DNA of 64,000 nucleotides from an uncultured Verrucomicrobiae bacterium (GCA_963707025.1 CAVPOM010000017.1:164082-228081); one strand, 5' to 3'; numbered from the stretch's first letter, positions 3,804 to 19,998 are shown. Notes: generated from the letters alone by a model not told the origin. Made by a program: numbers and translations.

Positions 3804-4514
3804 CTACGCGGTGGAGTTGGTGGGCGGGAACCCGCCTTGGCGGGGCCGCGGCGCGGCCGGCGCGGCGGGCCGGGCCGGGCCGGGCCGGGCGGCGGCCTGC
3901 AAGGCGCGCTGCACCAGCGCCTGCTCCTTTGGGCCCAGCGGCAGGGCCAGCGCGCGGGCTTGTGCGGCGGGCGTCATCTTCTGCCAGGTCTTTTGCACGG
4001 CGTTGATCATCTTGTCCTCCTCCATCCTGCCTGCCAGCGCGGCAAATTGGAACTCCAAAAAAACCAGGCAGAGCGCGTCCTCCAAAACGCGGCTTTCCGG
4101 ATCGCGCGGAAAATTCTTTTTCAGGTTCAGGTCCCGCACTTTTTGGATGAGGTCTTCCCCGCAGCCGGCCTGGCGCAGGATTTTGGCGGCGGTTTGGGCG
4201 TGGAATTCTTTTAATTCATTGCGCCAGCGCAGGTAGCCGGGGCGCGTCATGGGTTGGGATTGCCGGGGAATCATCCAGCGGCAAATATGCTGGCAGCGGG
4301 CGGCCAGGCGCAGCGTTTCCGAGGCGCCCGGGGCCAGTTTGAGCACCCACTCGCTCAGCCGCTCCGCGTAGAGCAATTCGCGCGGGCGCGCCAGGCCTTG
4401 GACCACTTCCACGTTGGGATCGCGCGCGTTTTCCGCGTCGAATTTCTCCAGGGCCAGCGCGAAGGAGGCATTGCCGGAATCCATGGCGCGGTCGGATTTT
4501 GGGTTACCCGTCAC
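3804..4514 (-). CDS. DUF4202 family protein
   Basis: 'DAENARDPN...LAARCQHICRW.IPR...GYLRWR...LEDALCLVFL' pattern. Confidence 0.75.
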   Translation of the reverse strand: MTGNPKSDRAMDSGNASFALALEKFDAENARDPNVEVVQGLARPRELLYAERLSEWVLKLAPGASETLRLAARCQHICRWMIPRQSQPMTRPGYLRWRNELKEFHAQTAAKILRQAGCGEDLIQKVRDLNLKKNFPRDPESRVLEDALCLVFLEFQFAALAGRMEEDKMINAVQKTWQKMTPAAQARALALPLGPKEQALVQRALQAAARPGPARPAAPAAPRPRQGGFPPTNSTA

Positions 4515-5898
4515 GGGGGCCTTCCCCCGCTTTGGCGGCGGGTTGCAGCACGACTTGCAAGCCCTCGCGGGCGGCGTCCACTTGCAATTTTTCGTGCAGG
4601 GCGGCCACGAAGGCGCGGCCCCATCCGGTCATGCGGGTGATTTTTTCGTCGTTGTGGGAGGGATCGTGATGGAACAGGAAAAGGCGCTTGACCTCGGCCT
4701 GCGCGGCCAGCGCGACGGCGTCGTCCACGCACCCGTGGCCCCAGCCGACGCGGCTCTGGTATTCGGTCAGATCGTATTGGGAGTCCAGGATCAGCACTTC
4801 GGCCCCCCGGATAAAGTCGGCCAGCCGCCCGTCCATGCGCTGGGCGTAGTGGAGGAATTCGGCCGAGCCGGCGATTTCCGGCTGGCTGGTATGGAATTTG
4901 TAGCGCTGGAAAGGCTCGTTGTCGGGCAGGTAGGCGATGGCCCCGCTGCTGGTGTTGAGGCGGTAACCGGCGCAGACGCCGGGATGGTTCAGAAACATGG
5001 CTTTGACCTCGACGCGCCCGATGAAAAAGGCCGAGTCCTTCATTTCCTCGATGGTGATGTGCCCGGGCAGTTGCTGAAAGCCGACCGGGAAGTAGGGGCT
5101 TTCCATCTGGCTGGAAAGGGCGGTGTGCAGGCCGGCCTGGGTGCCTTCGTAGCCCAGGATGCGCACCCGGTTGGCGGGATTGTAGGCGGCGTCAAAAAAG
5201 GGCAGTCCCTGAATGTGGTCCCAATGGGTGTGGCTGATGAGCAGGGTCATGGACAGGGGCACCCCCTTGAATTCGGCCGCCAGGCTCAGGCCCAGCCCGC
5301 GGATGCCGGTGCCGGCGTCCAGAATAATCAATTGACCGTCGGCGCGCACTTCCACGCAGGAGGTGTTGCCGCCATAATGGACGGTGGACGGCCCAGGGGT
5401 GGGCAGGGAGCCGCGCACGCCCCAGAAACGGACGGTCGCCGGCCCGGGGGGGATGGCTCCGGGGCCGGGAAGGGCGGACGGGCCGGGGCCTTTTTCGGCG
5501 CGCGGCGGGGGGGAGGCCAGGGTGGTGTTGCCGCCGCCGCGGAAGACTTCCAGGAGGCGGTCCAGGTCCTGCTCTAAAATAGGTTTGACGAGATATTCGT
5601 CGGCCCCGGCCTCGACCGCGCCCTGGCGGTCCACGCGGTAACCGCCGCTGGTGGTCAGGACGAAGCGGGCGCGGGAATGCGGCCCCGGCTGGGCGCGCAG
5701 AAAACGGCAGAGTTGGAAACCGTTGCAGCGGGGGGCCAGTTGATCGCACAGGATCAGGTCGGGTTTGTGGGTCAGGGCCAGGTCGCGCCCGGTTTCGCCA
5801 TCGCCGGCTTCGATCACCGCCAGCCCGGCCTGACGCAGCCAGCGGGCGAGCGATTCACGAACCACCCGATCCTCATCTATTAGCAAGGCGGTCTTCAT
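4504..5898 (-). CDS. response-regulator receiver + MBL-fold metallo-hydrolase (paralog 1)
   Basis: REC domain (IDED, DLILCD, ADEYLVKP) followed by FWGVRGSLPTP, DAGTG, HTHWDH, WGH, FHHDP. Confidence 0.85.
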   Translation of the reverse strand: MKTALLIDEDRVVRESLARWLRQAGLAVIEAGDGETGRDLALTHKPDLILCDQLAPRCNGFQLCRFLRAQPGPHSRARFVLTTSGGYRVDRQGAVEAGADEYLVKPILEQDLDRLLEVFRGGGNTTLASPPPRAEKGPGPSALPGPGAIPPGPATVRFWGVRGSLPTPGPSTVHYGGNTSCVEVRADGQLIILDAGTGIRGLGLSLAAEFKGVPLSMTLLISHTHWDHIQGLPFFDAAYNPANRVRILGYEGTQAGLHTALSSQMESPYFPVGFQQLPGHITIEEMKDSAFFIGRVEVKAMFLNHPGVCAGYRLNTSSGAIAYLPDNEPFQRYKFHTSQPEIAGSAEFLHYAQRMDGRLADFIRGAEVLILDSQYDLTEYQSRVGWGHGCVDDAVALAAQAEVKRLFLFHHDPSHNDEKITRMTGWGRAFVAALHEKLQVDAAREGLQVVLQPAAKAGEGPRDG

Positions 5899-5982
5899 GA
5901 GCGGGGCGCGGGCGCTTCCCAGCCTGCGGCTTTGACGGGGATGGGTTGCGCGCGCCAAGGTTGGACGCTTTGGGCGGATTTA

Positions 5983-7305
5983 TCAAAGGTTTTCGCGGAC
6001 GGGATGGAGGACTAATTCAAAGCCTTCGCGGGCCGCTTCCACCAGGAGGGGGGAATGGCCCCGGGCGGCCATTTGCCGCGCGCGCGCCACCATGCGGGAA
6101 ATCTCCTCGTCGTGGTGGTCCGGATCATGATGAAACAGGAACAGGCGCTTGACGTTGGCCGCGACGGCAAAGGCCACGCTGTCTTCCGCGCAACTGTGGC
6201 CCCAGCCGATGTGTTGCTGGTATTCCCCGGCGTTGTATTGCGAGTCCAGGATGAGCACTTCGGAGTCGCGGATGAATTCGAGGACCTTGAGATCAGGGTC
6301 GCTGGCGCGCTGGCCTTGTCCGGCATCCGGCTCGGCCGCGCGGGCCTCCAGGCTGCCCCGCAGCCGCTGGCAAAGTTCCACGTCGGGCAGGTAGGAGATG
6401 GCGCCCCCCGGAGTGCTGAGCCGGTAGCCGGTGCAGACGCCGGGATGATTGAGGAACTGGGCGCGCACGGGCACGGCGCCCACTTTGAAGTCAAGCCCCT
6501 TGAGTTCCTGGATGCAAACGTGGCCGGGCATTTGTTGCATGCTGATGGGGAAGTAGGGGCTTTCCATCTGGCTGGACAGCGTGCTTTGCAATCCCTGGCG
6601 CGCGCCCTCAAAACCAGCAATGGTGATCTGGTTCCTGGGATCGTAGGCCGGCCTGAAAAAGGGGAATCCCTGGATGTGGTCCCAATGGGTGTGGGTGATG
6701 AGCACGCTCAACTGGATGGGCTGGTCTTTAAACTCGGCCGCCAGCGCCCGGCCCAGCGGCCGGATGCCGCTGCCAGAGTCAAGTATAATTATGTCGCCCC
6801 CCGCCCGCACTTCCACGCACGCCGTGTTCCCTCCGTAATAGGCCGTCTCCGCCCCGGGCGTGGGAATGGAGCCGCGCACGCCCCAGAACTTGAGCCGGGT
6901 GCCGCCCGGCGCCGGCCGGGGCCGCGCGCCGGCGGCGGGCGGCCCGCCCAAACGCCGGGCCAGGATGGCGGAAAACTTTTCAAAATCCAGGGGGCGCGCC
7001 AGGTATTCGTCCGCGCCGGCTTCCAGCGAATGAAAGCGTTCGGGCGCCCGGCCGTTGCCGGTGGCGATAATAACGCACGGATGGGCCGGGTCCTGGCGCT
7101 GGTGGAGATCGCGGCAGAATTGGAAGCCGTCGCCGCGGGGTTTGAGCAGATCACACACGACCAGTTGCGGAGGATGTTGCAGGGAAAGTTCCAGGCCCGT
7201 CGCGCGGTCCCCGGCTTCCAGAACGGTCCAGTCCCGTTCCTTCAACCAAGCCGCCACGGCACGACGAAACTCGCCATCCTCGTCTATGACCAGGCCGGTA
7301 TTCAT
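5983..7305 (-). CDS. response-regulator receiver + MBL-fold metallo-hydrolase (paralog 2)
   Basis: Same architecture and motifs as the downstream gene (VVCD, FWGVRGSIPTP, HTHWDH, FHHDP). Confidence 0.85.
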   Translation of the reverse strand: MNTGLVIDEDGEFRRAVAAWLKERDWTVLEAGDRATGLELSLQHPPQLVVCDLLKPRGDGFQFCRDLHQRQDPAHPCVIIATGNGRAPERFHSLEAGADEYLARPLDFEKFSAILARRLGGPPAAGARPRPAPGGTRLKFWGVRGSIPTPGAETAYYGGNTACVEVRAGGDIIILDSGSGIRPLGRALAAEFKDQPIQLSVLITHTHWDHIQGFPFFRPAYDPRNQITIAGFEGARQGLQSTLSSQMESPYFPISMQQMPGHVCIQELKGLDFKVGAVPVRAQFLNHPGVCTGYRLSTPGGAISYLPDVELCQRLRGSLEARAAEPDAGQGQRASDPDLKVLEFIRDSEVLILDSQYNAGEYQQHIGWGHSCAEDSVAFAVAANVKRLFLFHHDPDHHDEEISRMVARARQMAARGHSPLLVEAAREGFELVLHPVRENL

Positions 7306-7602
7306 GATTGCCTCATCAGACACTATCCCCGTTTTCTTAAAGAAAACAAGCGCCCGATTCATCCGGTAGGACCTGCTTGTTCAAATAACGGGAAGGAATA
7401 GGGAGAGTTGACAGTTCTCATCGCCATGGCAACCCCGCCCGCTGCGACAAAAAGCGACGCTGGTTGATTTGGATGTGTTTTGGAGGCAGGCACTTGGAGA
7501 GAATCTCCACCCCCGCCATCCTCCCGCCTGGACGCGCTTTCTCTCTCCCCCAGCAGTTTCTGCAATTCTCAGGAGGTTGGAAGATAAGAAAGGCTTAAAA
7601 GT

Positions 7603-7672: not shown

Positions 7673-8068
7673 TTACGCGACGGCAATCTTGCGCGGTTTG
7701 GCCGCCTCCGCTTTGGGCAGCGTCAGGGTCAGGATGCCTTGCTCCATCCGGGCGCTGATCTTCTCCGCCTCAATGACAGGGTCCAGTTCGAAGACGCGGC
7801 GGAAATCAGCGGCGCTGGATTCACGGTAGGACAACCCGGTCTCCGGCAGGGCTGGCGCCGCACGCCGGCCTTGCACGGTCAAAACGGTCCCTTCCACAAG
7901 GACGCTTACGCCGTCTTTGTTGACGCCGGGCAATTCCGCCTCCAGGACGTAACCTTCCTGGGTCTCGTAGATGTTGACCACCGGACGGATGTACTCGCGT
8001 TCGGCTGCGACGGCGGCCGGCTGGGCCGGGGCCGCCTGCTCCGTATTATTGCTGACAATTGTGTTCAT
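7673..8068 (-). CDS. Hsp20/alpha-crystallin small heat shock protein
   Basis: P.VNIYE, LEAELPGV, FRRVFEL, GILTLTLPK, PRKI.V motifs. Confidence 0.9.
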   Translation of the reverse strand: MNTIVSNNTEQAAPAQPAAVAAEREYIRPVVNIYETQEGYVLEAELPGVNKDGVSVLVEGTVLTVQGRRAAPALPETGLSYRESSAADFRRVFELDPVIEAEKISARMEQGILTLTLPKAEAAKPRKIAVA

Positions 8069-8145
8069 AAGTAAATGTTTCCTTTTTGTTGATTGGGCCG
8101 GGACGGGATTTTCCGCCGCCACCGGCGCGATTCATTGAACCGGGA

Positions 8146-8631
8146 TTAATTGAATTCGATTTTGATTTGTTTCGGCTTGGCCTCTTCCGCCTTCGCCAGT
8201 TGAATGGTCAGGACGCCATCGCTATAGGCGGCCTTGATCGTCTTGGTGTCCACCTGGCAAGGCAGGCTGATGCTGCGCTGGAAGCGGCCGAACCATCTCT
8301 CGGAACGGGACACGCCGCCTTGCTTCTCATCGCGGCCGCCCTTGCGTTCGCCGGACAGGGTGAGGACGCCATCTTGCAGCGAGATGTCAATGTCCTCCTT
8401 TTTCATGCCGGGAAGCTCGGCCTTGACCGTGACAGCCTCTTTGTTGTCATGGATATCCACCGCCGGGAGCCATCCGCCGGAGAACTGTGTTTCAAGCCTG
8501 GCGTCCAAAGGCGAGTCGAAGACGCTGTCCAACGATTGGAGCAGTTGGCTCAAGTCGTTTGGCAGAGTGTAACCCCGGCCCCACGGAGCCAGGCCATATC
8601 CTTCAGGTCGTTGCCATCTGGTAAGTGTCAT
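8146..8631 (-). CDS. Hsp20/alpha-crystallin small heat shock protein
   Basis: PAVDI, AELPGM, ERWFGRFQRSISLP, DGVLTI, KPKQIKI; AAAGGA Shine-Dalgarno upstream. Confidence 0.92.
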   Translation of the reverse strand: MTLTRWQRPEGYGLAPWGRGYTLPNDLSQLLQSLDSVFDSPLDARLETQFSGGWLPAVDIHDNKEAVTVKAELPGMKKEDIDISLQDGVLTLSGERKGGRDEKQGGVSRSERWFGRFQRSISLPCQVDTKTIKAAYSDGVLTIQLAKAEEAKPKQIKIEFN

Positions 8632-8703
8632 AAAAATCAATCCTTTCTGTTTCTATCGCTTTCAGTTTCAAACTTAATCATGTTTTCCACTGAGTCCTTA
8701 TAT

Positions 8704-8866: not shown

Positions 8867-9004
8867 TATGGCGGTTTAAGAAATTGTGTAGCTCTAAATG
8901 AGGGTGGTAGGGCGCGCACTCCGTGCGCGCCGCGGCGGGTCCCGATAATTCGGGACCGGGACCCTGCCTTGTAATGCGGCTACAGTATTTGTGAAACCGC
9001 TCTA
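8867..9004. mobile_element. MITE-like element copy 1 containing a GTAG-type REP hairpin
   Basis: Imperfect terminal inverted repeats (GCGGTTTAAGAAAT.../...ATTTGTGAAACCGC) and internal GTAGGGCGCGCACTCCGTGCGCGCC; closely similar copy at 19809-19945. Confidence 0.65.
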
Positions 9005-9015
9005 ACCAGTATCTT

Positions 9016-9457
9016 TCACTTCACCGTCACTGGGAAGCTGGCTTCGGCTTGGATTGGGGGGCCGACGATGATGAGTTTGGCCTGCCAATCCCCGGCGATC
9101 TGCGGTTGCACGGTCACGCGATACTGGCCGGGCGTGGAAGTGCGCAGGGCTTTGAAAATGCTGTGCGTGATGGAGCCAGGACCGGCCAAGCCCAGTTCAA
9201 ATCGGACAGCGCCGACATCCACCAACCTCCCGCCGCCGTCACGGAACTCAATGAAGACGTCATTGCCCGCCGGTCCCAAATGCCCTTCCGAAGTGAACAG
9301 ATTGGCCGTCAGATTGGTAATCGGCGTGGTGGCAAAAGGCTGGCCGGAACATGACATGGACGGGCGGCGGTTTGGAGCGGTTCCACACCAAACAGAGAAC
9401 CACGCCCAGGACAATGACCACCGGCAAAAGATAGAATGCCTTCAGAAAAGTTTTCAC
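9016..9457 (-). CDS. membrane-anchored YtkA/FixH-like Ig-fold protein; frameshift near 9350
   Basis: N-terminal TM (LLPVVIVLGVVLCLVW) in one frame; 'GNDVFIEFRD...PGQYRV...AGDWQAKL' in the next. Confidence 0.5.
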
Positions 9458-9704
9458 TTCACGACTCAGCTTTGGAGTGTGCCGGCAAGTCGGCACCACT
9501 TTCGCCAAGCGGGACCAAGCTTCCCGCACGCCGGACAATGCCACCTTCGGCCCCGGCCCGCAACCCCATCGTCAACCTCTGGTCCCTTCATCACTATCCC
9601 GGCGGCATAAAATCATCCTGGCATCCCGTACACTTGACTGGAGAACGGTCCTGGCCGGCGCGAATAGCCTTGACAACTTCCGCCAATCCCGCCACCATAC
9701 GCCC

Positions 9705-11287
9705 ATGAGCCAAGGCGTTGACAAGCGGTTTTCGGCGGGCAAATCGAAACTCATCCTGGGTGTGCTCGTCTGCGGTCTGATCGGCGCGGCGTTGGCCTTC
9801 CGCATCCCCGGCGCGGGCGGGGCTGGCGTCAGCACTACCTTCAAGCTGCGCGAGGTTTCCGCTTTTGGCGTGGACAAGGACCACTTCCTCCGGGGACAAC
9901 TCTGCCGCTGCCAGGACAAGCCATTCGCGGAGGTGAAGAATTATCCCGACTTCGCCTCCAAGGCGCCCATCTTCGGGTCGGTTCGGTTTGGCGCGAAAGC
10001 GGACCAGACCAACTCCGGCTGGCTGTATTATTTTGCCGTGGATGAAAGCCGCGGCACCGGCAAAGGCTATGACCGCCTTTATTTTGACAGCAACCAGGAC
10101 TTGGACTTGCGCAATGATCCGGTGGCCAAACTCCAGCAGCATTCGCCCGATCATGCTAATGCCGTGAACTTCGGCGGCACCAAGGCGAACGTGGCCTTCG
10201 ATTTTCTGAAGGTCAACCTGGCCGGCAGCGACGGCGCCTCCAACCTGGTGGAACTCATGCCGCGCCTCCTCGTCACGGCGAGCGACACGCAAACCTACTG
10301 CTACCTGTTTTTCGTGCGCACCCGCCTTTTTGAAGGCGACATCCGCATAGGCGGCGAAAAGTTTCACGCCCAGCTCGGCAATGATTATGCCATAACACCC
10401 GGCTTCGATTCCCCCTCGACCGCCCTGGTTCTGAGCCAGGGGCGCAATACCATTGATTGGTGGGGCGGGGACCGGCAATCGGCTATTCACAAGGTGGACG
10501 GCCACTTCTACCGCCTTTCCGCCACCCCGGCCGGCGAGTTGACCGTGCATCCTTATGAGGGAGAGTTGGGAACCTTTGAAGTGGGAGCAGGCGCCCGAAA
10601 ACTGACCAATTTCAGCCTGTCCGGTTCTTTGCGCGCCAAGGATTGGGCCGTGCCGGTGGGCGGCGACATCCAAGACGGCCGGCCTGTCGAGGCCAAGCGT
10701 TGCCAGATTCCGGTGGGCGATTACCTGCCGGAGTATCTCTCCCTGCAATTCGGCCGGCTGCAAATAAATGTTTCGCAAAACTACCATTCGGAAGGCAAAC
10801 GGCAGAGCCGGGAAGGCCGGGCGGACGTTTTCGGAATGGCCGTCCGCAAGGACCAGCCGTTCGTGCTGGATTTCTCCAACAAACCCGACGTGATGTTCGC
10901 TTCCCCCGCCCCGGGTCAGCGGATCAAAGCGGGCGACACCCTCATGGTCATGGCCGTGCTGGTGGACCCGAAACTGGACATCATGATCCGCGGACTGGAC
11001 GACACTTCGCGCAAGCAGACCAAGGATGCCGAGGGCAAGCCCCTGGGCTATGAACGGACCCTGCCGCTGGATCCCACCGTGATCATCACCGGGCCGGCGG
11101 CGAGAAAGTGGCTGAGGGCGTCATGCCCTTTGGGTGAGACGGCACCTGCGGGTATTCATGGCGAGTGCCAAAAGATCTCAAACTGGACGGCCGGGCGGAA
11201 ACTTTCAACATCCAGGTGTTTTACGACACGCTGGAACTTTACGGCAAGGTCAGCGCCAGCCGCCCCGTCACGGTCTATCGCGAATGA
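9705..11287 (+). CDS. putative exported selenoprotein A (FG-U-DGTC); Sec codon 11135-11137; one-base deletion near 11090
   Basis: N-terminal TM/signal and DSNQDLD loop. Restoring one C gives ...EKVAEGVMPFG-TGA-DGTCGYSWRVP... with 49 more codons to TGA 11285; SECIS-like hairpin follows. Confidence 0.75.
11151..11169 (+). promoter_or_regulatory. candidate bacterial SECIS of gene A
   Basis: GGUAUUC-AUGGC-GAGUGCC hairpin; loop begins +21 after UGA. Confidence 0.75.
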
Positions 11288-11361
11288 ACGGGGCGCCGGG
11301 CCGCGGATCAACCAAACTTGTCGTCCGCTGGCACAAAAATTCAATGAAAGAAAGAATCCTT

Positions 11362-12153
11362 ATGATCCCAAAGTTCCATAAAGCAAACCGCGGCTTTGCC
11401 GTGGCGGCCTTCTTGCTGGCGGGCCTCGGACTGGTGACGCTGACGGACGCGCAAACCGGCGCCAATCCCGACACCACGGCCCCCGCGCAGGCAGATGGTC
11501 CGCCGCGCATTCTCGCCACCTCGCCCAAGAGCGGCGTCAACAATGTGGATCCGGCTCTGAAGGAGATCACCATCACCTTTGACCGCGACATGGAAGGCGG
11601 CATGTCCTGGACCGGAGGCGGGCCGGCCTTTCCCAAATCGCCGGAGGGGGCGAAGGCCCGTTGGCGCGACAAGCGCACCTGCGTTTTGCCCGTGACGCTC
11701 CAAACCGGCCATGACTACCGCGTCGGCATCAATTCACCCAGCTTTCAGAATTTTCGGAGCGCCGCCAGCGTGCCGGCCGCGCCCACCGCCATTGTCTTCA
11801 GGACCAGCGGCCCGAAGGTCGAAAGCAAAGCGCCTGAGATTGTCAGCCTCAACCCGGCCAATGGCGCGAGCGATGTCAGCCCGGCGCTGACCGAGTTGCG
11901 GGTCACCTTCAACATGGCCATGGGGAATGGATGTTCCTGGACGGGCGGCGGTCCCAGGTATCCCGTTATTCCTGCCGGGAAGAAAGCTTCTTGGAGCAAG
12001 GACCACAAAACTTGTGTATTGCCGGTGGAGCTGAAACCAGGCTCGTCGTATCAATTGGGCCTCAATAGCCTGTCGTACAAAGGCTTTCAGAGCGAAGACG
12101 GCGTTCCGTTGAAACCGGTGACCTACACCTTCAAAACGAGCGATGCGCCGTGA
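11362..12153 (+). CDS. secreted protein with two tandem Ig-like (Big_5-type) domains
   Basis: Signal peptide and two repeats of 'P.I....P..G...V.PAL.E...TF...M..G.SWTGGGP..P...W..D..TCVLPV.L..G..Y..G.NS'. Confidence 0.7.
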   Translation: MIPKFHKANRGFAVAAFLLAGLGLVTLTDAQTGANPDTTAPAQADGPPRILATSPKSGVNNVDPALKEITITFDRDMEGGMSWTGGGPAFPKSPEGAKARWRDKRTCVLPVTLQTGHDYRVGINSPSFQNFRSAASVPAAPTAIVFRTSGPKVESKAPEIVSLNPANGASDVSPALTELRVTFNMAMGNGCSWTGGGPRYPVIPAGKKASWSKDHKTCVLPVELKPGSSYQLGLNSLSYKGFQSEDGVPLKPVTYTFKTSDAP

Positions 12154-12190
12154 CTGTTCCGTAACGCGCTGATGCTTCCCGGGCTGCTGA

Positions 12191-13957
12191 ATGGTTGCCA
12201 TCAATGTTATGAAACCTGATCGGGCCGCCAGAACCTCCCTGATCATTCCTCGATGTTTCCAAGCAGCCGCTGCCGGAAACACCGGGGTTCTGCTGGCGTC
12301 TTTGATTTTGTTTCTCTCCGCTTGCCCGCCAGCCAAGGCCCGCGAAAGTCCACCTGCCGCCGGGGCCGCGGTTGGCGCCGCAGTTGACTTGTTGCAACGC
12401 TATCCGACCAAGTTGGCGGCGGGCGATACCAACCCGAATCAAGCCCGGTCATGGGAATTCACGGACGGCGACATCTTTCGGGTGACACAGTTTCGTCTGG
12501 CGGCGGGCAAGGAATTGCGGGTGGAGACAGGGCCCGCTGACCTGGGCATCGGCCACTGCGCGGATGGCGCCGTCTGGGCGGTGCTCATCCCGCGAGCCGG
12601 CGGAACACTGACCAGTCAAGAGAGCAACCAGGAAGCCATCGCCCATGTGTGGCTTCGGTTTCACCCGAAGGAGATCAGACACCTGTTCCCGCCGGAGACG
12701 GTGTTCGCCGGCGGAGCTGTCAACTTGTCAGCCCAGATGCGCCTCATTGCCAATGCCAAGATGACTTCAAGCTGGCAGGCCGGAGGCAGGGCCATGATTC
12801 CGGAGCCAAAGGACATGACCGTGGATGTGGATGCCAAGAATGGCTGGCGTCGGTTCTTCGCGGTGGATCAGCAGTCCCAAACGGCAGAATACGTTGACGC
12901 CTTCGCCAACCGGTCCGTCAAGCTCCCGCCGCCTCTGACGCAAGGCGCAGCCCAGGCGGCTTTTGATCAACTCTGGGAGGCATTCGATCGCGACTACGCC
13001 ATGTTCGTGCTCCGCCCGGAAGTGGATTGGGCAAAGTTGCGCGAGCAGTATCGTCCGCCGGCGCTCGCCAGCAAATCCGCCTATGAGTTGGCCGGCGTCT
13101 GCGCGGACATGCTGGCCAAGCTCCGCGACCTGCACATCTGGCTGACGGTCGCCGGCGCGCCAGTCCCGGTGTTTAACCGGCCCCGGTCAGCCAATGCCAA
13201 TCCGCGAGCCTGCCAGGCCCTTCTCGGCGGTTTCAAACAGGAAGGACGGGTGGCTTGGGCCGTCACGACCAACCACATCGGCTTCATCGCCATCTTCGGC
13301 TGGGACGATCCGAAGATTCCGGCGCAGTGCGGCGAAGCCCTGGAACAAATGCGCGCTACCCGCGGGCTGATTGTGGATGTGCGCCTGAACGGCGGTGGTG
13401 GCGAACCATTGGCCGCACGATTCGCGGGCCGTTTTCTGGAGAAGGAGTTCGTCTATGCCTTTAGCCAGTTTCGGAACGGCCCAAGCCACACGAACCTGAC
13501 GGACAAGTCCCAACGCGCCATCGCGCCGCGCGGGCCGTGGCGCTACGACCGTCCCGTCCTGTTGCTCATCGGCCAGAAGTGCATGAGCAGCGATGAATCC
13601 TTCGTCGGCATGATGACGGGCGACCCGCAGGTCACGACCATGGGCGATCACACTTGCGGCTCCAGCGGCAACCCCGAAATCGTCCGCCTGCCACTGGACA
13701 TGACGGTGAGCGTGCCGCAGTGGATTGATTACCTGCCGGACGGCACGCCGCTGGATGAGCGCGGGTTCCAACCGCAGATTCCGTTTCAGCCGGCGCCCGG
13801 CGCGTTTGAAGGCGGTCGGGACGACCTGCTCGCCGCCGCGCTGGCGCGTCTGAGTCAGGCGCCTTTGCCCGGCAAACAGATTGAAGGACCCGTGTTTGAA
13901 CCCGCGACTTCCGACCTGCCGGATCATAGCCAGGGCGTGGAGGAAGAAGCCAAGTGA
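12191..13957 (+). CDS. secreted S41 family peptidase
   Basis: FDQLWEAFDRDY (tricorn C1-like), LIVDVRLNGGG, CMSSDESF (catalytic Ser), GDHTCGSSGNP. Confidence 0.8.
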   Translation: MVAINVMKPDRAARTSLIIPRCFQAAAAGNTGVLLASLILFLSACPPAKARESPPAAGAAVGAAVDLLQRYPTKLAAGDTNPNQARSWEFTDGDIFRVTQFRLAAGKELRVETGPADLGIGHCADGAVWAVLIPRAGGTLTSQESNQEAIAHVWLRFHPKEIRHLFPPETVFAGGAVNLSAQMRLIANAKMTSSWQAGGRAMIPEPKDMTVDVDAKNGWRRFFAVDQQSQTAEYVDAFANRSVKLPPPLTQGAAQAAFDQLWEAFDRDYAMFVLRPEVDWAKLREQYRPPALASKSAYELAGVCADMLAKLRDLHIWLTVAGAPVPVFNRPRSANANPRACQALLGGFKQEGRVAWAVTTNHIGFIAIFGWDDPKIPAQCGEALEQMRATRGLIVDVRLNGGGGEPLAARFAGRFLEKEFVYAFSQFRNGPSHTNLTDKSQRAIAPRGPWRYDRPVLLLIGQKCMSSDESFVGMMTGDPQVTTMGDHTCGSSGNPEIVRLPLDMTVSVPQWIDYLPDGTPLDERGFQPQIPFQPAPGAFEGGRDDLLAAALARLSQAPLPGKQIEGPVFEPATSDLPDHSQGVEEEAK

Positions 13958-14004
13958 ACGTGCGGTGCGGCAAAAAAGCCCCCCAAGTCACCGCCAGCAG
14001 CGCG

Positions 14005-14892
14005 TTAAATTGATGACTTGTTCGTATCGCTCGGCGGCGTGTTTTGCGGCAGGGCGAAGCACGGCTCCAGGGCGCCGCAGGTGGCGCATTCCAGGCAGCG
14101 GATGCAGCCGGAGACGTTGACGGCCTGGTCCACTTTCACGCCCATCGAGCAGCGGCTGCGGCAGAGGTTGCATTCGACGCACTGCTGAGGATTGAACCGG
14201 AGATGAAACAGGCTGAATCGGTTGAAGAGCGCGAGCAGTCCGCCGAGCGGACAAAACATCCGGCACCACGGCCGGTGAATGAAAAGCGCGACGGCAAGGA
14301 ATGAAAGCAAAAGCCCGGTCTTAAAACCGCTCATGATCCACCCGTGGCCGGCCAGCAGGCTTTGCACCGAGTAAGGCACGCCCGCTTCCAGCGCGCCCGC
14401 CGGACAAAGCCGGCAGATGGACACCACCTGCTTCTCAAACGGAATGCCTTTGTAACCCAAAATCAGCGGCAAAAGAATCACCAGCCCGCCCAGAACCACG
14501 TAACGGATGCTGCCGGTCCAGGACGGCAGGTTGATTTTCCGAGTTGTGATTTTGCCAAGCAAGTCCTGGAGAAAACCGAACGGACAAGCCCAGCCGCAGA
14601 CGATGGAACCGCCCACCGCGCCAACCAGCAGCAGCACGCCGATCAACAAATACGGCGCTTCCCCAACCACCGGCAGCAGCGCCGCGTAGTTCGCCATCAC
14701 CCCTATCGGGCAGGCGAAAGCCGACAGCGGGCACGAGTAGCAGTGGAACACGCAGCCGGGAATGCCATGCAGCCATTGGCCCGCCGGCGCCAGCCACACC
14801 CCCAGAAAACCGGTTTGCACCCAGGGACGGACGCGGGCAAGCATCCGCCCTCGAGCGGCGGCCTGGGGCAATGCTGGTGGCTGATGGCTCAT
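14005..14892 (-). CDS. membrane-bound 4Fe-4S binding protein (NapH/MauN/YccM-like)
   Basis: TM helices with CYSCP..ACPIG, CGWACPFG, CRLCPAG, CRMFCPLG and ferredoxin motifs CVECNLCRSRC, CIRCLEC. Confidence 0.85.
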   Translation of the reverse strand: MSHQPPALPQAAARGRMLARVRPWVQTGFLGVWLAPAGQWLHGIPGCVFHCYSCPLSAFACPIGVMANYAALLPVVGEAPYLLIGVLLLVGAVGGSIVCGWACPFGFLQDLLGKITTRKINLPSWTGSIRYVVLGGLVILLPLILGYKGIPFEKQVVSICRLCPAGALEAGVPYSVQSLLAGHGWIMSGFKTGLLLSFLAVALFIHRPWCRMFCPLGGLLALFNRFSLFHLRFNPQQCVECNLCRSRCSMGVKVDQAVNVSGCIRCLECATCGALEPCFALPQNTPPSDTNKSSI

Positions 14893-14902
14893 GGATTAAG
14901 AG

Positions 14903-15430
14903 GGCTGAAGGCTGAAGGCTAAAGGCTGAAACATGGGGGTTGTGGGAAAAATCTTCATGAATTTAGCTTTTTGCGCAGCCTTTGGCCGTTTTATCAACGC
15001 TTGTGAAAATTGCGATGAGTTGGCGCGTTTCCTCGAGCAAGCCGGCCATCCGGGCTTGCGTGACACAACCGCCTTCCACCAGCAGTCCGAGCCAATACTC
15101 GGTTTCTTCGATTTCCTTGAGACAGTCTCCAACCTTGGAAATAAACTCGGCTTTCGACCGTCCGCGCGAAGCCTCGCGATAATTCGCCCCGACCGAAGTT
15201 CCCGAACGAAGCACCTGCTTGCCCAGCACTTGCGCAACCGTGCTGGACTTGGGCAACTTGGAATACAAATGAATGATCCGAAGCGCGAACGCCTTCGTTC
15301 TCGGTTTCAAATCTTGCGGCTCATCACTCATAATGCAAACGACAGATTTCACATTCAAATTCAAACTTATCTCAAAAACGCAGCCGATTTTAGCCTTCAA
15401 CCTTTAGCCTTCAGCCTTTAGCCTTTAGCC
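14903..15430. repeat. inverted heptamer arrays (GGCTRAA)x4 and (TTYARCC)x6 flanking the four-helix-bundle gene
   Basis: 14903-14930 and 15389-15430 are mutually reverse-complementary tandem arrays. Confidence 0.85.
14963..15331 (-). CDS. four helix bundle protein (23S rRNA IVP-like family)
   Basis: RTKAFALRII...QVLRSGTSVGANYREA.RGRSKAEFISK...E.EETEYWL. Confidence 0.9.
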   Translation of the reverse strand: MSDEPQDLKPRTKAFALRIIHLYSKLPKSSTVAQVLGKQVLRSGTSVGANYREASRGRSKAEFISKVGDCLKEIEETEYWLGLLVEGGCVTQARMAGLLEETRQLIAIFTSVDKTAKGCAKS

Positions 15431-15438
15431 TTTCTAAT

Positions 15439-15457
15439 CGGCCACGCCATGCGGCCG
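15439..15457 (-). promoter_or_regulatory. candidate SECIS of gene D, located in the 3' UTR
   Basis: CGGCCGC-AUGGC-GUGGCCG; loop begins +21 after UGA. Confidence 0.75.
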
Positions 15458-15461
15458 GGGT

Positions 15462-15836
15462 TTATTTCATTCAAGTGGGACAGGGTGTTTTTGCGCTCGT
15501 GTTTACGCGGATTTTCCACGCCGGCGGCCGGTAATTGGCCTGTTGTTTGGCCCAGCGGTCCAGCGCCTCGCCCGGATTGGCCACGTTATCCAATTTGGGC
15601 GGCGGTGGCGGCGCAACCTGGTCCGGGTATTGCAGGCCGCTGGAGGAGAAGGCCGTGACCAACTGCGTTTCCCACGCGGTGTTGCCGTCCACCGTGTCCA
15701 CCTTGGTCAGATGCCGCGCGCCGCAAAAAACCACCACCGCGCCGGTCAGCGCCACGACGAATCCGCCCCAGAAATCGTGGCCTTCCCGCGCGCGCAACGC
15801 GCGGTTGACCGGTGGCTGTGGGACTCGTTTGAACAT
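15462..15836 (-). CDS. putative membrane-anchored selenoprotein D with C-terminal CxxU (CPTU-MK-stop); Sec codon 15471-15473
   Basis: One TM (FWGGFVVALTGAVVVFCGA); ends TGT CCC ACT TGA ATG AAA TAA; starts 25 nt after tRNA-Sec; SECIS-like hairpin follows. Confidence 0.75.
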
Positions 15837-15860
15837 GCTAAAGGGGTGGAGGGGGCAAAT

Positions 15861-15957
15861 TGGCGGAGGTGGATGGGAATCGAACCCACCTGGGACTTTG
15901 TTGAGCCCCACACTGGTTTTGAAGACCAGGAGCGCCACCAGGCCGCCCCACACCTCC
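15861..15957 (-). tRNA. selC: tRNA-Sec (anticodon UCA)
   Basis: GGAGGTG...CTGGTCTTCAAAACCAG, long variable arm, GGTTCGATTCC, ...CACCTCCGCCA; 97 nt with encoded CCA. Confidence 0.95.
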
Positions 15958-16271
15958 GCACCGGGTCGCTGCGCCGCCGGCCGATGGCAGGCGTGATTTA
16001 TTTCCGGTGGGCTTCCTCATACACCTATTGTGACAGGTTTGGCCGATACTTCAATGCGAATAAATTACATCGGCCAATCAACGTCTGTCATCCTGCCGCC
16101 CAAGCCCGCCACAATCAGGCCAAACACCAAAAGTATGTATCCGACAGTCGCCATCCCTTCGTAAATTAAACCATGCCGATCAACATGCTGCTCGTGAAAC
16201 TCAACCCGGCCGCTAGCGCGATCACTTCGCCAGTTTTTTGATCTCCGCCTCCAGTTCGTCGAGGGCAAAAT

Positions 16272-17540
16272 CTAAGTTCTTGGTTTGAGCATCAGCGGAC
16301 TGGTCTCCACCTGGAACGGGCTGACAATTTTGACGCTGCCAGTCAACGGACGCTGCGTATTTTTGGGCTCCCGCCATGAGAGCGAACAAACGCCGCCTCA
16401 TCCAAACTCGAAAGTGCTGGAAAAAACCAGGGTTCCAGTGGTGCTGGCCAGCACCAGTTTTGGCCCCTGCGGGCGCTGCCCGCCGCGCAGCATTTCTATG
16501 GATTCCTCCTGCCGGCCCACAAATTGGAGACTAAAGTTGATCTGGCGGTCGGCCCCCTCCGCCGCCTTGAGCACGGCTTGCACCGGCTCGCCGATTTTGA
16601 GCAAGGCGGTCTTGTCGGCGGCGACCTGGAAGCCGGCGGTTTTTGGAAAACCAGAGCCGGACAGCGTCCAGGCCGCCCCTTTTTCATCCTTGCGGTTGAT
16701 CGTCCAGCGGACGACCCGGTAATGGCCGGCCGGCAAGGTGACTTCGCCGTTGACCGGTTTGCGCACGAAATGGCCGTTCTCACCGAAAACGACCAGTTCG
16801 GAAATGTTTTCCGGCACGCGCACCTGGCCGAGCGTGACGTCCTCCGCCTTTTGCACCTTGACAAACGCGCCGTCGCGGGCCACTTCGATCCGGTAAAGCT
16901 TGCCGTTGACTTCCAGCATCCGGCCCAAGAAATGTTCGCTGGTCTGGTCGCCCTCGATCTGGACTCGGTCGCTGTCATAGGCATCGGCGCCGACGTCGTT
17001 GAACGTGCCATTGACGTTGCCGTCAATCAGTTGGAGGCGCTTTTTCACGCCGTCGAAGTTCACCATCCCTTCATACCAGCCGGCGGAGGAGGCCAGCAAT
17101 TCCGCGGGGCCGGTTGCGGATTCATAAAGCCGGAACTCCAGATGATAGGTGATCGGCCCGTCCCCGCCCTTGAAAACCAGGCGGGCCGGCGGAAATTCGG
17201 CGTTGGGATTGGCCCGCGCTTGGAGAGGCGTTTTGTCGTCCAGCCGGCCATTGCCGTTGCTGTCAATGAAGAGCCGGTCATACGGCCCGCCCTTGCGCGA
17301 GCGGTCCAGGCAAACCCAGCGCCCGCCGCTGGGATCCATCGGCGTCACCCAGCGCGCGAAATAGGGCGCGGCGTTCAGCTTGGGCAGGGCGACGCCGGGC
17401 GGCGGATTGGTGGTCAGGTCCAATTGGTGGTAGGCCTGGCCCTGCGCCCCGGTGTGGTATTGCAGCCTTTGCTCCGTTTGCGCCCAGGCGCTGCCGGCCA
17501 GAACCATTCCGGCCAGAATCAATTGTTTGGAAAATTTCAT
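16272..17540 (-). CDS. putative exported selenoprotein B (FG-U-GGVC); Sec codon 16398-16400
   Basis: Signal peptide; DSNGNGRLDD and DGNVNG loops; ...STFEFG-TGA-GGVCSLSWREP... with 41 more codons to TAG. Confidence 0.8.
16367..16383 (-). promoter_or_regulatory. candidate SECIS of gene B
   Basis: GCUCUC-AUGGC-GGGAGC; loop begins +21 after UGA. Confidence 0.75.
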
Positions 17541-17571
17541 AAGGTCGCGGTTGATTTTTTCTTCCTCAAAT

Positions 17572-19680
17572 TCAAGTTTTCAGACTGGCCTCCAGCAATG
17601 GCGCCCTCACCGGCGGCAACTCCGGCTTCACGTGCAGCAGCGATTTGAGCCGTTCGCGGTAAAATGGACTGGCCGACGACAGGATCAAGAACGGCAGCAG
17701 CACCGCGAAATGGAAGGCCGCCACCAGGAGAACGGGAGCAAACAATACGCTCCAGTCAATCCGCCCGCTTGAGCCTATCATCTCTATTAAAAAGAAAGGC
17801 AAGCCGATCAGCACCCAGAGAACGGCCGGCAGGACGAGCAGCCAGATATAAAGTCCGAGCGGACGGTAACGACCGCGGCAAATCAGGCCGGCAAGACTCA
17901 GCGCCACCGAACTGACCAGAACGCACAGGGCCAGCGCCACGGCGACTGGAAACGCTTCGTCCGTGGAACTCCAGTCTTGCCGCGCGACAAAGGCCAGCCC
18001 GCTGAAACCCGTCAAGACGGACAGGATGCACAGAAAAGTGACGAACCGATGTTGCCGCCGCAGATAATTTGACAGAAGCCAGACTGCGGCCAGACCAACC
18101 GCCAGCGCGGCGATGACATCCAGGAAAAAATTCGTTCCCGGTGGCAGGATGTCCGGCGGCGCCAGGGTCAGCGCGATCAGGCATCCGAGCGGCAGCCAGA
18201 TCAACCACGCGGCGCCACAACGATTGGGTTTGAAGGCGAGCAACCCCAGGATGGCCAGCCACGGCAGCAACAGCGGCGCAAAACCGGGCAGCACCCAGTC
18301 GTAGGCGACCTGCGGCCCTTCCTTCGCGCCCAGCGCACCGAGGTCCGACGAAGCCACAATGGCCAGTTTGCCGCCGGCGGTGAGAGGCACTCGCCACGAG
18401 TGCGAACAGGTCCCGCCTCAGCCAAACTCAAAATCGCCCGTCGCAATTTTCTTTTCCCCGCAGTAAATCGCGAAGGCCGGCGGCTTGGAGCGGTCTTGCG
18501 CCGCCATTTGGTAAGATTCGCGGCCCGCGCCCACCAGGAGATAATCCAGCCGCAAATCCTGCCCGTGGCGGCTGGCGCTGACGGTATTGGTCAACGGCCC
18601 GCCCACGTTCAACACCAGCGGGGTCTTGCCGTCCACCGCCATTTGCCCGAGGCTCTGCGTCTGGTTGGCACTGCGGAAGGCCGCGGCCCCGTTTTTTTCG
18701 AGCTGGATCTCAAGCTGGTTGTAGCTGCCGGTCGGAATTTTGACCAGGCCTGCCGGCTGATCGAGCATCACCAGATACGGCCCGCCGCTCAGAACCAGGC
18801 GGCCGATCAATTGGCCGGTGATTTTCACTTCGCCCAGCGCGACGGATTGCTCGGTGAATTGGAGCGTCGGCCTGGCTTCGCCGTTTTCCGAACCTGCGGT
18901 CCACTCCAGTTGATAGGCGTGGCCATCCACGAAAACTTTCCGCGAAGGGGGAACAGGAACACTGGCGAGCAAACCGTCGCCCGCGTTGAACGCCTGGGCT
19001 CGCTTTTCCCAGGGGCGCAGCAGCAACCGGCTGTTCTGCAACAAGCCCGACGGGCCCCAGATATTTTGCACGATGCCCACCTGCCAGTCCCGCCCTTGCA
19101 AGGTCATTTTGCCTTGCCAGAACGAGCGCACCGCCGCGGAACAGACAAGTTGCGAAGGCGGACCATAGTCATAGAAGTTGAGGTCCGCCAGCACCCGCCA
19201 CCTGCCGGCAGGGGTGTTGAAAAGCAGGTGGACGTTCGTGAAGCCCTGATAATTTGCCGGCCCCGTCGCGCCGGCCAAAAACACGCCGGAGGGATCGTCG
19301 GTCAAATCCTGGTTGCGATTGAGGTCCAGGTAAAGTTTGCGCGCGTCGCGCTGCCAGAGAAAGGCAATGGCATTGCCCGCATCGCCCGCGAAATTCAAAG
19401 CGCCGCGAGCGATTTTGCCCGAAAGCGCCGCCGGCTCCTTTTTGAAAGGCATGGATTGCGTCCCCAGGCCAACGCCCCAGTTGTTGACGCTATAGGCTGT
19501 TTCCTGATATTCCAGCGAAGCCACCGTCGCGTTTGAGGAGGGGGAACCGGCCGGCGCGCCCTCCGCCGCGAGAAGAACAGCTCCCGGCCAAAATACCGCC
19601 ATCAGCGTCCACGTCAGCCGGGCCACCCGGACGTTTCCAAGGCACCGCCAAGATAAACCATCAGTCCTTTGCTTTGCCAT
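17572..19680 (-). CDS. putative selenoprotein C (FG-U-GGTC): exported domain fused through Sec to a multi-pass membrane domain; Sec codon 18418-18420
   Basis: ORFs 18418-19698 and 17572-18390 are in one frame separated only by the TGA: ...GDFEFG-TGA-GGTCSHSWRVPLTAGG... Confidence 0.82.
18387..18403 (-). promoter_or_regulatory. candidate SECIS of gene C
   Basis: GCACUC-GUGGC-GAGUGC perfect stem; loop begins +21 after UGA. Confidence 0.78.
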
Positions 19681-19808
19681 TAGACATTTCATTAGCACAT
19701 CTAAACACCTGTTTCAACAGAAATCTGTAAATATAAAAATCTGTAATGGTCCAAAGTGTTCGCCGATCCAGAATCGAAGGTGTAAAAGTTTTGGTTCGGC
19801 CTTGCTTC

Positions 19809-19945
19809 CAGGGCGGTTTAAGAAATTGTGCAGCCCTAAACGAGGGTGGTAGGGCGCGCACTCCGTGCGCGCCGCGGCGGGTCCCGATAATTCGGGACCC
19901 GCCCTTGCCGTGCAATGCGGCTGCAGTATTTGTGAAACGGCTCCA
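19809..19945. mobile_element. MITE-like element copy 2
   Basis: Direct-orientation copy of 8867-9004 with the same TIR-like ends and REP hairpin. Confidence 0.65.
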
Positions 19946-19998
19946 GCCGGAAGCGGATGCGGTCAATGGGTGCCCCTCCAGCCATACGGTTCATCAAC

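Follow-up and report, generated by a model that had tools for sequence, protein, structure and literature searches.

The 64,000-nucleotide (nt) window analysed here, from the genome of an uncultured Verrucomicrobiae bacterium (G000), holds a cassette of four genes, designated A to D, in which an apparent UGA stop codon is predicted to encode selenocysteine (Sec, U). The cassette surrounds the tRNA-Sec gene, selC (positions 15861 to 15957, minus strand), which was recovered by both ARAGORN, with the anticodon UCA, and Rfam (RF01852, 72.9 bits), as an earlier sequence-only reading of the window had proposed. Genes A, B and C are paralogues with a common C-terminal region of ∼190 residues and are termed Ig-Sec genes here, after the immunoglobulin (Ig)-like domain predicted to carry the Sec. 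Gene B (16272 to 17540, minus strand) encodes a 422-residue secreted protein with the motif U381-x3-C385, and gene C (17572 to 19698, minus strand) encodes a protein of ∼700 residues with U427-x3-C431. The gene A product (9705 to 11287, plus strand; ∼527 residues) is an exported or membrane-anchored paralogue. Gene D (15462 to 15836, minus strand) encodes a 124-residue single-pass membrane protein with the end C119-P-T-U122-M-K-stop, and a NapH-like membrane iron-sulfur (Fe-S) protein with a Fer4_5 domain is encoded at 14005 to 14892 (minus strand). Genes B, C and D and the Fe-S gene form the core of the system. Export or membrane signals in the Ig-Sec proteins and D agree with the extracytoplasmic location that the sequence-only reading had suggested.

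The candidate Sec codons lie at 11135 to 11137 in gene A (plus strand; MPFG-U-DGTC) and, on the minus strand, at 16398 to 16400 in gene B (FEFG-U-GGVC), 18418 to 18420 in gene C (FEFG-U-GGTC) and 15471 to 15473 in gene D. Reading UGA as U lengthens all four genes, with 41 residues past the UGA in B and 281 in C, the latter including ∼7 hydrophobic segments; annotation under translation table 11 splits gene C in two. Each UGA, three in a UxxxC and one in a CxxU context, is followed 14 nt downstream by a 6-bp stem with an RUGGC loop, an arrangement already noticed in the sequence-only reading and borne out here. These hairpins, which resemble a Sec insertion sequence (SECIS), occupy 11152 to 11168 in gene A (plus strand, loop AUGGC) and 16367 to 16383 (B), 18387 to 18403 (C) and 15440 to 15456 (D) on the minus strand. 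The bacterial SECIS (bSECIS) model places a stem-loop 16 to 37 nt past the UGA with a G within the first two loop positions (PMC13188914, legend to Fig. 2); here, the loop lies 20 nt past the UGA and has a G within its first two positions. The gene D hairpin is not a by-product of the protein sequence, as it sits 3′ of the stop codon. A strict hairpin pattern, built from genes A to D and hence circular for these four, matched only 8 of the 195,170 UGA triplets in G000: genes A to D, two additional paralogues on contig C11 and an unrelated, duplicated sequence on contig C4. The C11 paralogues (C11:93903, plus strand, and C11:55304, minus strand) are additional Ig-Sec genes, each with UGA and hairpin, and the latter is the second, C-type gene that lies between C and B in G527, a genome of the same genus (84 to 91% identity) that served as the main reference for this copy; it is not in the window.

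Global reassignment of UGA to Trp or Gly was ruled out: UGA is the commonest stop codon in G000, ending 926 of 1,626 long open reading frames (ORFs), and recoding must therefore be site specific. Among 104 nonredundant Ig-Sec sites from fetched loci, aligned at the DNA level, 91 had UGA, 4 had Cys codons, 5 encoded other residues and 4 were gaps, and UAA or UAG was never found. The reading frame stayed open for at least 38 codons, or up to the end of the locus, at all 91 UGA sites; the hairpin was present at 84 and a Cys at position +4 at 81. Stem pairing was 100% in 47 aligned sites, compared with 26 to 67% for controls slid along the alignment, although the stem structure was read from the same 47 related sequences, which favours the real position over the slid controls. 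Four of the six base pairs had changes on both sides, in 37 cells compared with 11.5 in shuffles (none of 500 shuffles reached this value). The encoded residues also swap in pairs (His/Val, Leu/Glu and Tyr/Val or Ile), as forced by base pairing. A conserved in-frame UGA and conserved coding sequence past it, two general features of bacterial Sec-UGA selenoproteins, are both found here. Standard gene calls lose this sequence, as had been anticipated: all 120 top database matches of B, one of them the window's own protein, stop at FEFG or FEYG, immediately before the UGA, and all 120 top matches of D end in CPT, again just before it. Together with the Sec machinery described below, these sequence features make us highly confident that SelB and tRNA-Sec, guided by a downstream SECIS, insert Sec at all four UGAs, so that A, B and C are made as exported Ig-Sec proteins alongside D. 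Of the three refuting outcomes named in the sequence-only reading (a genome lacking Sec machinery, homologues with TAA or TAG at the site and loss of conservation beyond the UGA), none was observed. Two genome-wide hunts for further selenoproteins recovered none and then two of six known sites and were too insensitive to be informative; none of the 33 candidates from the second resembled a known family by eye.

A profile built from 21 read-through Ig-Sec domains matched 3,862 clusters at 50% identity, 2,053 of them at E values up to 1e-10, and 124 of the best 150 matches end in Gly before the UGA while 26 run through. The source names of close homologues indicate Verrucomicrobiota (Limisphaerales). 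The family was found in 29 of 301 sampled genomes of the window's order (23 with UGA, hereafter carriers, and 6 without the site), in 13 of 301 genomes of its class, for which only B served as query, and in 63 of 301 Planctomycetota, the phylum of the Pirellulales record G559. There are up to nine matches per genome, with one Sec each. Cys-containing homologues, which the sequence-only reading had suggested seeking, exist but are rare (L102, L103, P0137, P0166, P0170 and P0176). G631 and G784 have the Cys form, lack the hairpin and yielded no selA, and Cys-bearing P0166 and P0176 are fused to AhpC/TSA-redoxin domains. One contig scan used a Cys-form pattern that is blind to UGA forms; its sole locus, L040, was not counted as a reliable Cys form, since the same genes on that contig contain both a frameshift and a stop. 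Gly occupies the U position in several database homologues, which may be gene calls made under a UGA=Gly code. Variants were also seen in L122 (G563), where the motif is GC-U-GGG with Cys immediately before U, and in L018 and L019 (G117 and G123), where B orthologues extend ∼510 residues beyond the UGA with further beta-rich domains that are lost in standard annotation. Fusions of a Sec-free domain were seen with a protein kinase (P0152), a staphylococcal-nuclease domain (P0139) and TPR repeats (P0187).

The AlphaFold model of B, in which U was modelled as C, is all-beta and has high scores (pLDDT 96.2, pTM 0.91), and its final ∼105 residues are predicted to form an Ig-like sandwich. The best fold matches of this Sec domain were an S-layer protein (Z 9.1, root mean square deviation [rmsd] 2.4, 85 residues aligned) and Escherichia coli alpha-2-macroglobulin (Z 9.0, rmsd 2.2, 75 aligned), tied with many other Ig-like domains at Z 8 to 9, and they indicate a common Ig-like fold only. 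In the model, the U lies in a loop between strands 351 to 356 and 364 to 370, in an exposed hairpin; a stop at the UGA would break the domain, because three strands follow. The N-terminal domain of B folded alone with a pLDDT of 93.6 and had no clear fold match (best Z 5.9), which is not proof of a new fold; its D-x-N-x-N-G loops may bind calcium. Foldseek gave no full-length match (best TM-score 0.18).

Gene D and the Fe-S gene travel closely with selC. The D profile matched 17 of the 301 order genomes, all among the 23 carriers, and all 17 loci have CPT-UGA-x-x-stop and the hairpin. selC is directly upstream of D in 14 of the 17, and the Fe-S gene is directly downstream in 16. Divergent D genes with the same ending occur in two class-level and four Planctomycetota loci, and two Planctomycetota D loci have U-x-stop instead. 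No Cys was seen at the U position of D among 23 loci. The Fe-S protein, with Fer4_5 above the Pfam cut-off, has membrane helices, two CxxxCP motifs, two ferredoxin (4Fe-4S) motifs and six extra invariant Cys residues (47, 51, 54, 61, 160 and 163). It scores far below the NapH and NosR model cut-offs (43 bits against 213 for NapH, TIGR02163), and no nap genes were found among the neighbours scanned. A complex model of the Fe-S protein with D lacking its last three residues gave an ipSAE of 0.68, compared with 0.00 for the best of three controls, with contact agreement between runs of at least 81% and a partner pLDDT of at least 71; the same mark was attained by 116 of 157 solved pairs and by 2 of 215 mismatched ones, counts that apply only approximately to the alignments used here. 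In the model, the D helix packs on residues 82 to 93 of the Fe-S protein and the D N terminus touches the ferredoxin domain, which would place the CPTU end outside. NapH-like proteins have been reported to transfer electrons across the membrane to varied partners (PMC8238504). Modelling and gene context make it probable that D and the Fe-S protein form a membrane complex that carries electrons outward, with the CPTU end outside.

As the sequence-only reading had stated, selA, selB and selD are absent from the window; they form an operon on contig C12 of G000 (64.9 to 69.8 kb). In the window's order, selA is present in 21 of the 23 carriers, in none of the six genomes without the site and in 107 of 301 overall; of the two carriers without selA, one has tRNA-Sec and the other is 57% complete. 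Twenty of the 22 best-scoring SelA matches come from carriers, a hint that one SelA lineage travels with the system. The recurring order in relatives is C, B, a ∼1,100-residue CarboxypepD_reg-repeat gene, selC, D and the Fe-S gene, and selABD adjoins the selC-D-Fe-S end in G388, G499, G553 and G385. Beside selA lies a block of four genes, for a double-cubane reductase, an S-adenosylmethionine (SAM) methyltransferase, a second dehydratase-like subunit and an activase. This block is found, whole or in part, in G000 (C12), G527, G499, G388, G385, G368, G029, G039 and G059; in G000 it precedes selA, selB and a SelD fusion (L160, C12:56774 to 69841). The double-cubane reductase of locus L135 scored 394.8 bits for NF040772 (cut-off, 350), and the C12 copy is 64% identical to it. 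The methyltransferase occurs in 20 of the 301 order genomes, comprising 19 of the 23 carriers and only 1 of 278 others. SelD is a fusion protein, with a Cys-rich segment at its N terminus and an AhpD/CMD domain at its C terminus, and its active-site residue is Cys in 14 of 15 loci. None of the 35 FdhA-like matches listed (39 genomes) has an internal UGA, and the usual anchors of the Sec trait seem to be absent. The island described in the sequence-only reading is therefore a real cassette but only half of the system, as the C12 module is contiguous with the cassette in relatives. In L124 and L129 (G751 and G605), a corrinoid protein and two MtaA/CmuA-like methyltransferases are encoded between the Ig-Sec genes and selD, and L124 has a DUF3034 porin-like gene and a redoxin gene beside selC.

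Consistent with the earlier suspicion that this is not a described family, A, B, C and D had no curated NCBIfam or Pfam match at or near cut-off; at E values up to 0.1 there were only lone weak, off-topic matches of C to CrcB (E 0.057) and D to Transgly_assoc (E 0.085). Eight distant read-through homologues likewise had no hidden Markov model (HMM) match, and a PDB sequence search found no match for either family. The "hypothetical protein DG" model (GUxG motif, NF049953) was considered and gave no match in G000, nor in the control genomes. Neither Ig-Sec nor D is among the 119 families of Table 1 in PMC13188914, and no description of either was found in the literature covered; candidates could be listed in supplements or in Haft and Tolstoy (2025) or Deng et al. 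(2026), all outside that coverage. A literature search on NapH/CcoG/RdxA motifs was likewise without result.

Five known systems invite comparison. With bSECIS-decoded selenoproteins in general, the system shares the in-frame UGA, the SECIS stem-loop and selABCD in the genome, but the Ig-like Sec domain and UxxxC spacing of Ig-Sec do not appear in Table 1 of PMC13188914. A parallel in organization is offered by the SAO system of Haft and Gwadz, in which several exported selenoproteins likewise share one conserved neighbourhood and for which a link to double-cubane reductases, here present with an activase, was reported (bioRxiv 2022.07.06.499078). It differs in that the present loci, from bacteria of the Planctomycetes-Verrucomicrobia-Chlamydiae (PVC) group, have no MerB-like lyase or conserved ABC transporter and encode Ig-like carriers together with a NapH-like Fe-S protein. 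The models of SaoL, B, P, T, C and X matched none of the 11 and 25 proteins scanned. The Fe-S protein resembles NapH-like proteins (PF12801; NapH, NosR) in its Fer4_5 domain, two CxxxCP motifs and two ferredoxin motifs, but its six extra invariant Cys residues, lack of an FMN domain and selenoprotein partner set it apart from NapH and NosR.

D resembles the UXX-star families (NF041114, NF041211, NF041212 and NF047649), named for a U-x-x-stop ending, in that all 17 order-level loci end in this way. Neither D nor five distant D homologues matched these models, however, and D is a single-pass membrane protein with C-P-T-U rather than a Grx-like or methyltransferase protein. A functional analogy may be drawn with DsbD, which has an Ig-like N-terminal domain with two Cys residues, a membrane domain and a thioredoxin domain: in both cases a membrane relay would feed a redox pair that sits in a hairpin of an Ig-like domain outside the cytoplasm. 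In Ig-Sec, in contrast, the pair is in an internal hairpin with three strands after it, and the relay appears to be Fe-S based. Ig-Sec had no Pfam or PDB sequence match to DsbD, whose N-terminal domain was not among the 50 fold matches listed.

The copy in the window is incomplete. Gene A meets its UGA only via a one-base frameshift near 11090, and the gene is in frame in G527 and G421. The frameshift is probably an assembly error. Sequencing run X1 yielded exact but short matches to the region, and a less closely related contig in it has one additional base at 11089, which is not decisive for this strain. Frameshifts also hit 18 of 99 unrelated ORFs (∼18%), among them an EF-Tu-like gene on contig C6, which makes assembly error the likely cause; these ORFs were drawn from 17 arbitrary G527 stretches, and some of them overlap. 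The G000 annotation is unreliable without polishing. The rate in selABD (∼5 events in ∼5 kb) exceeds that elsewhere (0.14 per kb), and decay of the system in this strain therefore retains a modest share of the probability. Compared with G527, the window lacks 3.25 kb after gene B, of which only the final ∼16 codons of the CarboxypepD_reg-repeat gene are left (16222 to 16272, minus strand, by comparison with relatives), and 2.2 kb between A and the Big_5 gene, comprising a prepilin-like gene, blaI and the M56 half of a BlaR1 sensor.

The accessory features of the block include two Big_5 domains at 11362 to 12153 (plus strand), the 3′ remnant of a BlaR1/M56-Big_5 gene, and an exported S41 (tricorn-like) peptidase at 12191 to 13957 (plus strand). 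Both are present as first described, together with the Fe-S protein, but their assignment to the system did not survive comparison and they were rejected as core parts: S41 was found in only 2 of the 60 neighbourhood stretches screened (G527 and G165), and the Big_5 gene is a BlaR1/M56 leftover. Between the Fe-S gene and D, an insertion flanked by short tandem or inverted heptamer repeats (14903 to 15440, minus strand) has been gained relative to G527 and carries a four-helix-bundle (23S_rRNA_IVP) gene (ORF 14963 to 15400). This gene looks mobile, because it is absent in G527 and in G165 has gone into another site, between selC and D. A palindromic repeat of ∼135 bp flanks the block (8867 to 9010 and 19812 to 19948). 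With 95 BLASTN matches in G000, it resembles a miniature inverted-repeat transposable element (MITE) or repetitive extragenic palindrome (REP), and the two copies were rejected as island borders since the repeat is dispersed through the genome. To the left, 9016 to 9600 (minus strand) probably represents a single frameshifted gene that encodes a YtkA-like protein with a membrane anchor, and a short ORF containing Cys lies upstream of it; the gene is not beside the cassette in G527. Further left, two small heat-shock-like genes (7673 to 8640) and two response-regulator/metallo-beta-lactamase-like genes (4504 to 7362, minus strand) were recognized by eye.

We propose the following mechanism. Recoding of the UGAs would give the exported Ig-Sec proteins A, B and C and the small membrane selenoprotein D. 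The D/Fe-S complex would relay electrons from the cytoplasm or the quinol pool to the outer face, doing the job of DsbD with iron-sulfur clusters. There, the C-x-x-U of D may re-reduce the single exposed Sec of oxidized Ig-Sec proteins, the oxidized form being either an Se-S bond with the Cys four residues on or an adduct. Once reduced, the selenols could capture a thiophilic substrate outside the cell or reduce it, the likeliest candidates being a soft metal(loid) and an organo-S/Se/As compound. The coinherited cytoplasmic module (double-cubane reductase, ATP-driven activase, SAM methyltransferase and SelD-AhpD-like fusion) would process this substrate further. Recoding, export or membrane signals and coinheritance are read from sequence, and the Ig-like Sec domain and the D/Fe-S complex from models; electron flow to D, reduction of the Ig-Sec selenol and hand-over of the substrate to the cytoplasmic module are inferred. 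The chain as a whole is plausible at somewhat less than even probability. The role in redox or metal handling put forward in the sequence-only reading is compatible with these results. More tentatively still, Ig-Sec may be a very large, as yet unrecognized selenoprotein superfamily that, with the CxxU protein and the Fe-S relay, makes up a new type of system for reducing selenols across the membrane. Such a system, linked to methylation and to double-cubane reduction driven by ATP, would transform a metal(loid) or organo-S/Se compound and would be the main reason that these PVC bacteria keep Sec, with the machinery travelling along.

Several observations weigh against this proposal. D was not found by its profile in 6 of the 23 carriers or the methyltransferase in 4, and in place of the double-cubane module, two Planctomycetota loci contain corrinoid/MtaA genes and one contains an ABC transporter. 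The +4 Cys is absent at 10 of the 91 UGA sites, and an Se-S cycle within the motif is hence not universal; many homologues keep the domain although neither residue is present, which argues for a Sec-independent role of the domain. In the G000 assembly, selA, selB, selD and the methyltransferase are frameshifted, like gene A. Finally, the genes may co-occur through hitch-hiking together on a single mobile block, and genomes that are related do not count as independent cases.

The frameshifts, their density in selABD and the missing 2.2- and 3.25-kb blocks would suit either UGAs that are true stops or a system that is real in the family but dead in this strain. True stops can be given hardly any credence, as they would cut the Ig-like domain before its last three strands and sever C from its membrane part, and UAA or UAG never replaces the UGA among the 104 sites. 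A dead copy is rather unlikely, given the frameshifts in unrelated ORFs and the intact B, C, D and Fe-S genes. If recoding is accepted, the Sec could be a lone, noncycling ligand, with the paralogues binding or sensing a soft metal(loid) (Hg, Ag, Cu or As) or an organometallic compound and Fe-S/D reducing the bound metal. The U is better conserved than the +4 Cys (81 of 91) and lies in an exposed hairpin of an Ig-like domain, the kinase fusion of the non-Sec protein P0152 is as expected for a sensing domain, and the Sec of SaoB, SaoC and UXX-star proteins may be a metal ligand (PMC13188914). The redoxin fusions and the C-x-x-U of D point instead to thiol-disulfide chemistry, and no efflux pump or known resistance gene was found among the 45 neighbouring proteins scanned, which leaves the lone ligand a credible but unlikely explanation.

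Two further explanations account for less of the gene content. Chlamydiae have disulfide-cross-linked envelopes, and the paralogues may similarly be envelope building blocks cross-linked by diselenide or Se-S bridges that the Fe-S/D pair opens. Several one-Sec paralogues per genome, an all-beta multidomain build with S-layer and macroglobulin domains among the best folds, candidate calcium-binding loops and neighbouring CarboxypepD_reg repeats would fit such a role. However, the fold matches, tied at Z ∼9, reflect only the common Ig-like fold, a patchy spread (23 of 301 order genomes) is unlike that of an essential wall component and the cytoplasmic enzyme module is left unexplained, making this explanation distinctly improbable. 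A selenium-scavenging loop, in which exported selenols capture selenite or organoselenium that is then reduced, imported and fed to SelD or methylated for disposal, is also improbable. It would explain why selA, selB, selC and selD are tightly linked to the cassette in two phyla, why SelD has extra Cys-rich and AhpD-like domains and why two loci include a porin-like gene and one an ABC transporter. With Sec-free FdhA in all 35 matches listed and Cys in SelD at 14 of 15 loci, there may nevertheless be few other selenoproteins to supply, and the argument is circular unless the aim is detoxification.

The proposed selenol-reducing system, whatever its substrate, involves two apparently uncatalogued families of exported selenoproteins that occur with a membrane electron-transfer protein in many Verrucomicrobia and Planctomycetes. 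The current catalogue of 119 prokaryotic selenoprotein families consists mostly of thioredoxin-like proteins or metabolic enzymes (PMC13188914), to which these families bring an exported Ig-like domain that bears Sec and a CxxU membrane protein as the partner of an Fe-S relay. Methods that search for Cys/UGA pairs would miss both Ig-Sec and D because Cys versions are rare, a limit of such methods stated by the deep-Sep authors (PMC12013277). The families are common, with matches in 23 of 301 and 63 of 301 sampled genomes, in two phyla that are abundant and largely uncultured, and their database entries are cut short. The conserved gene set provides a testable handle on extracytoplasmic selenium and on the natural substrates of double-cubane enzymes.

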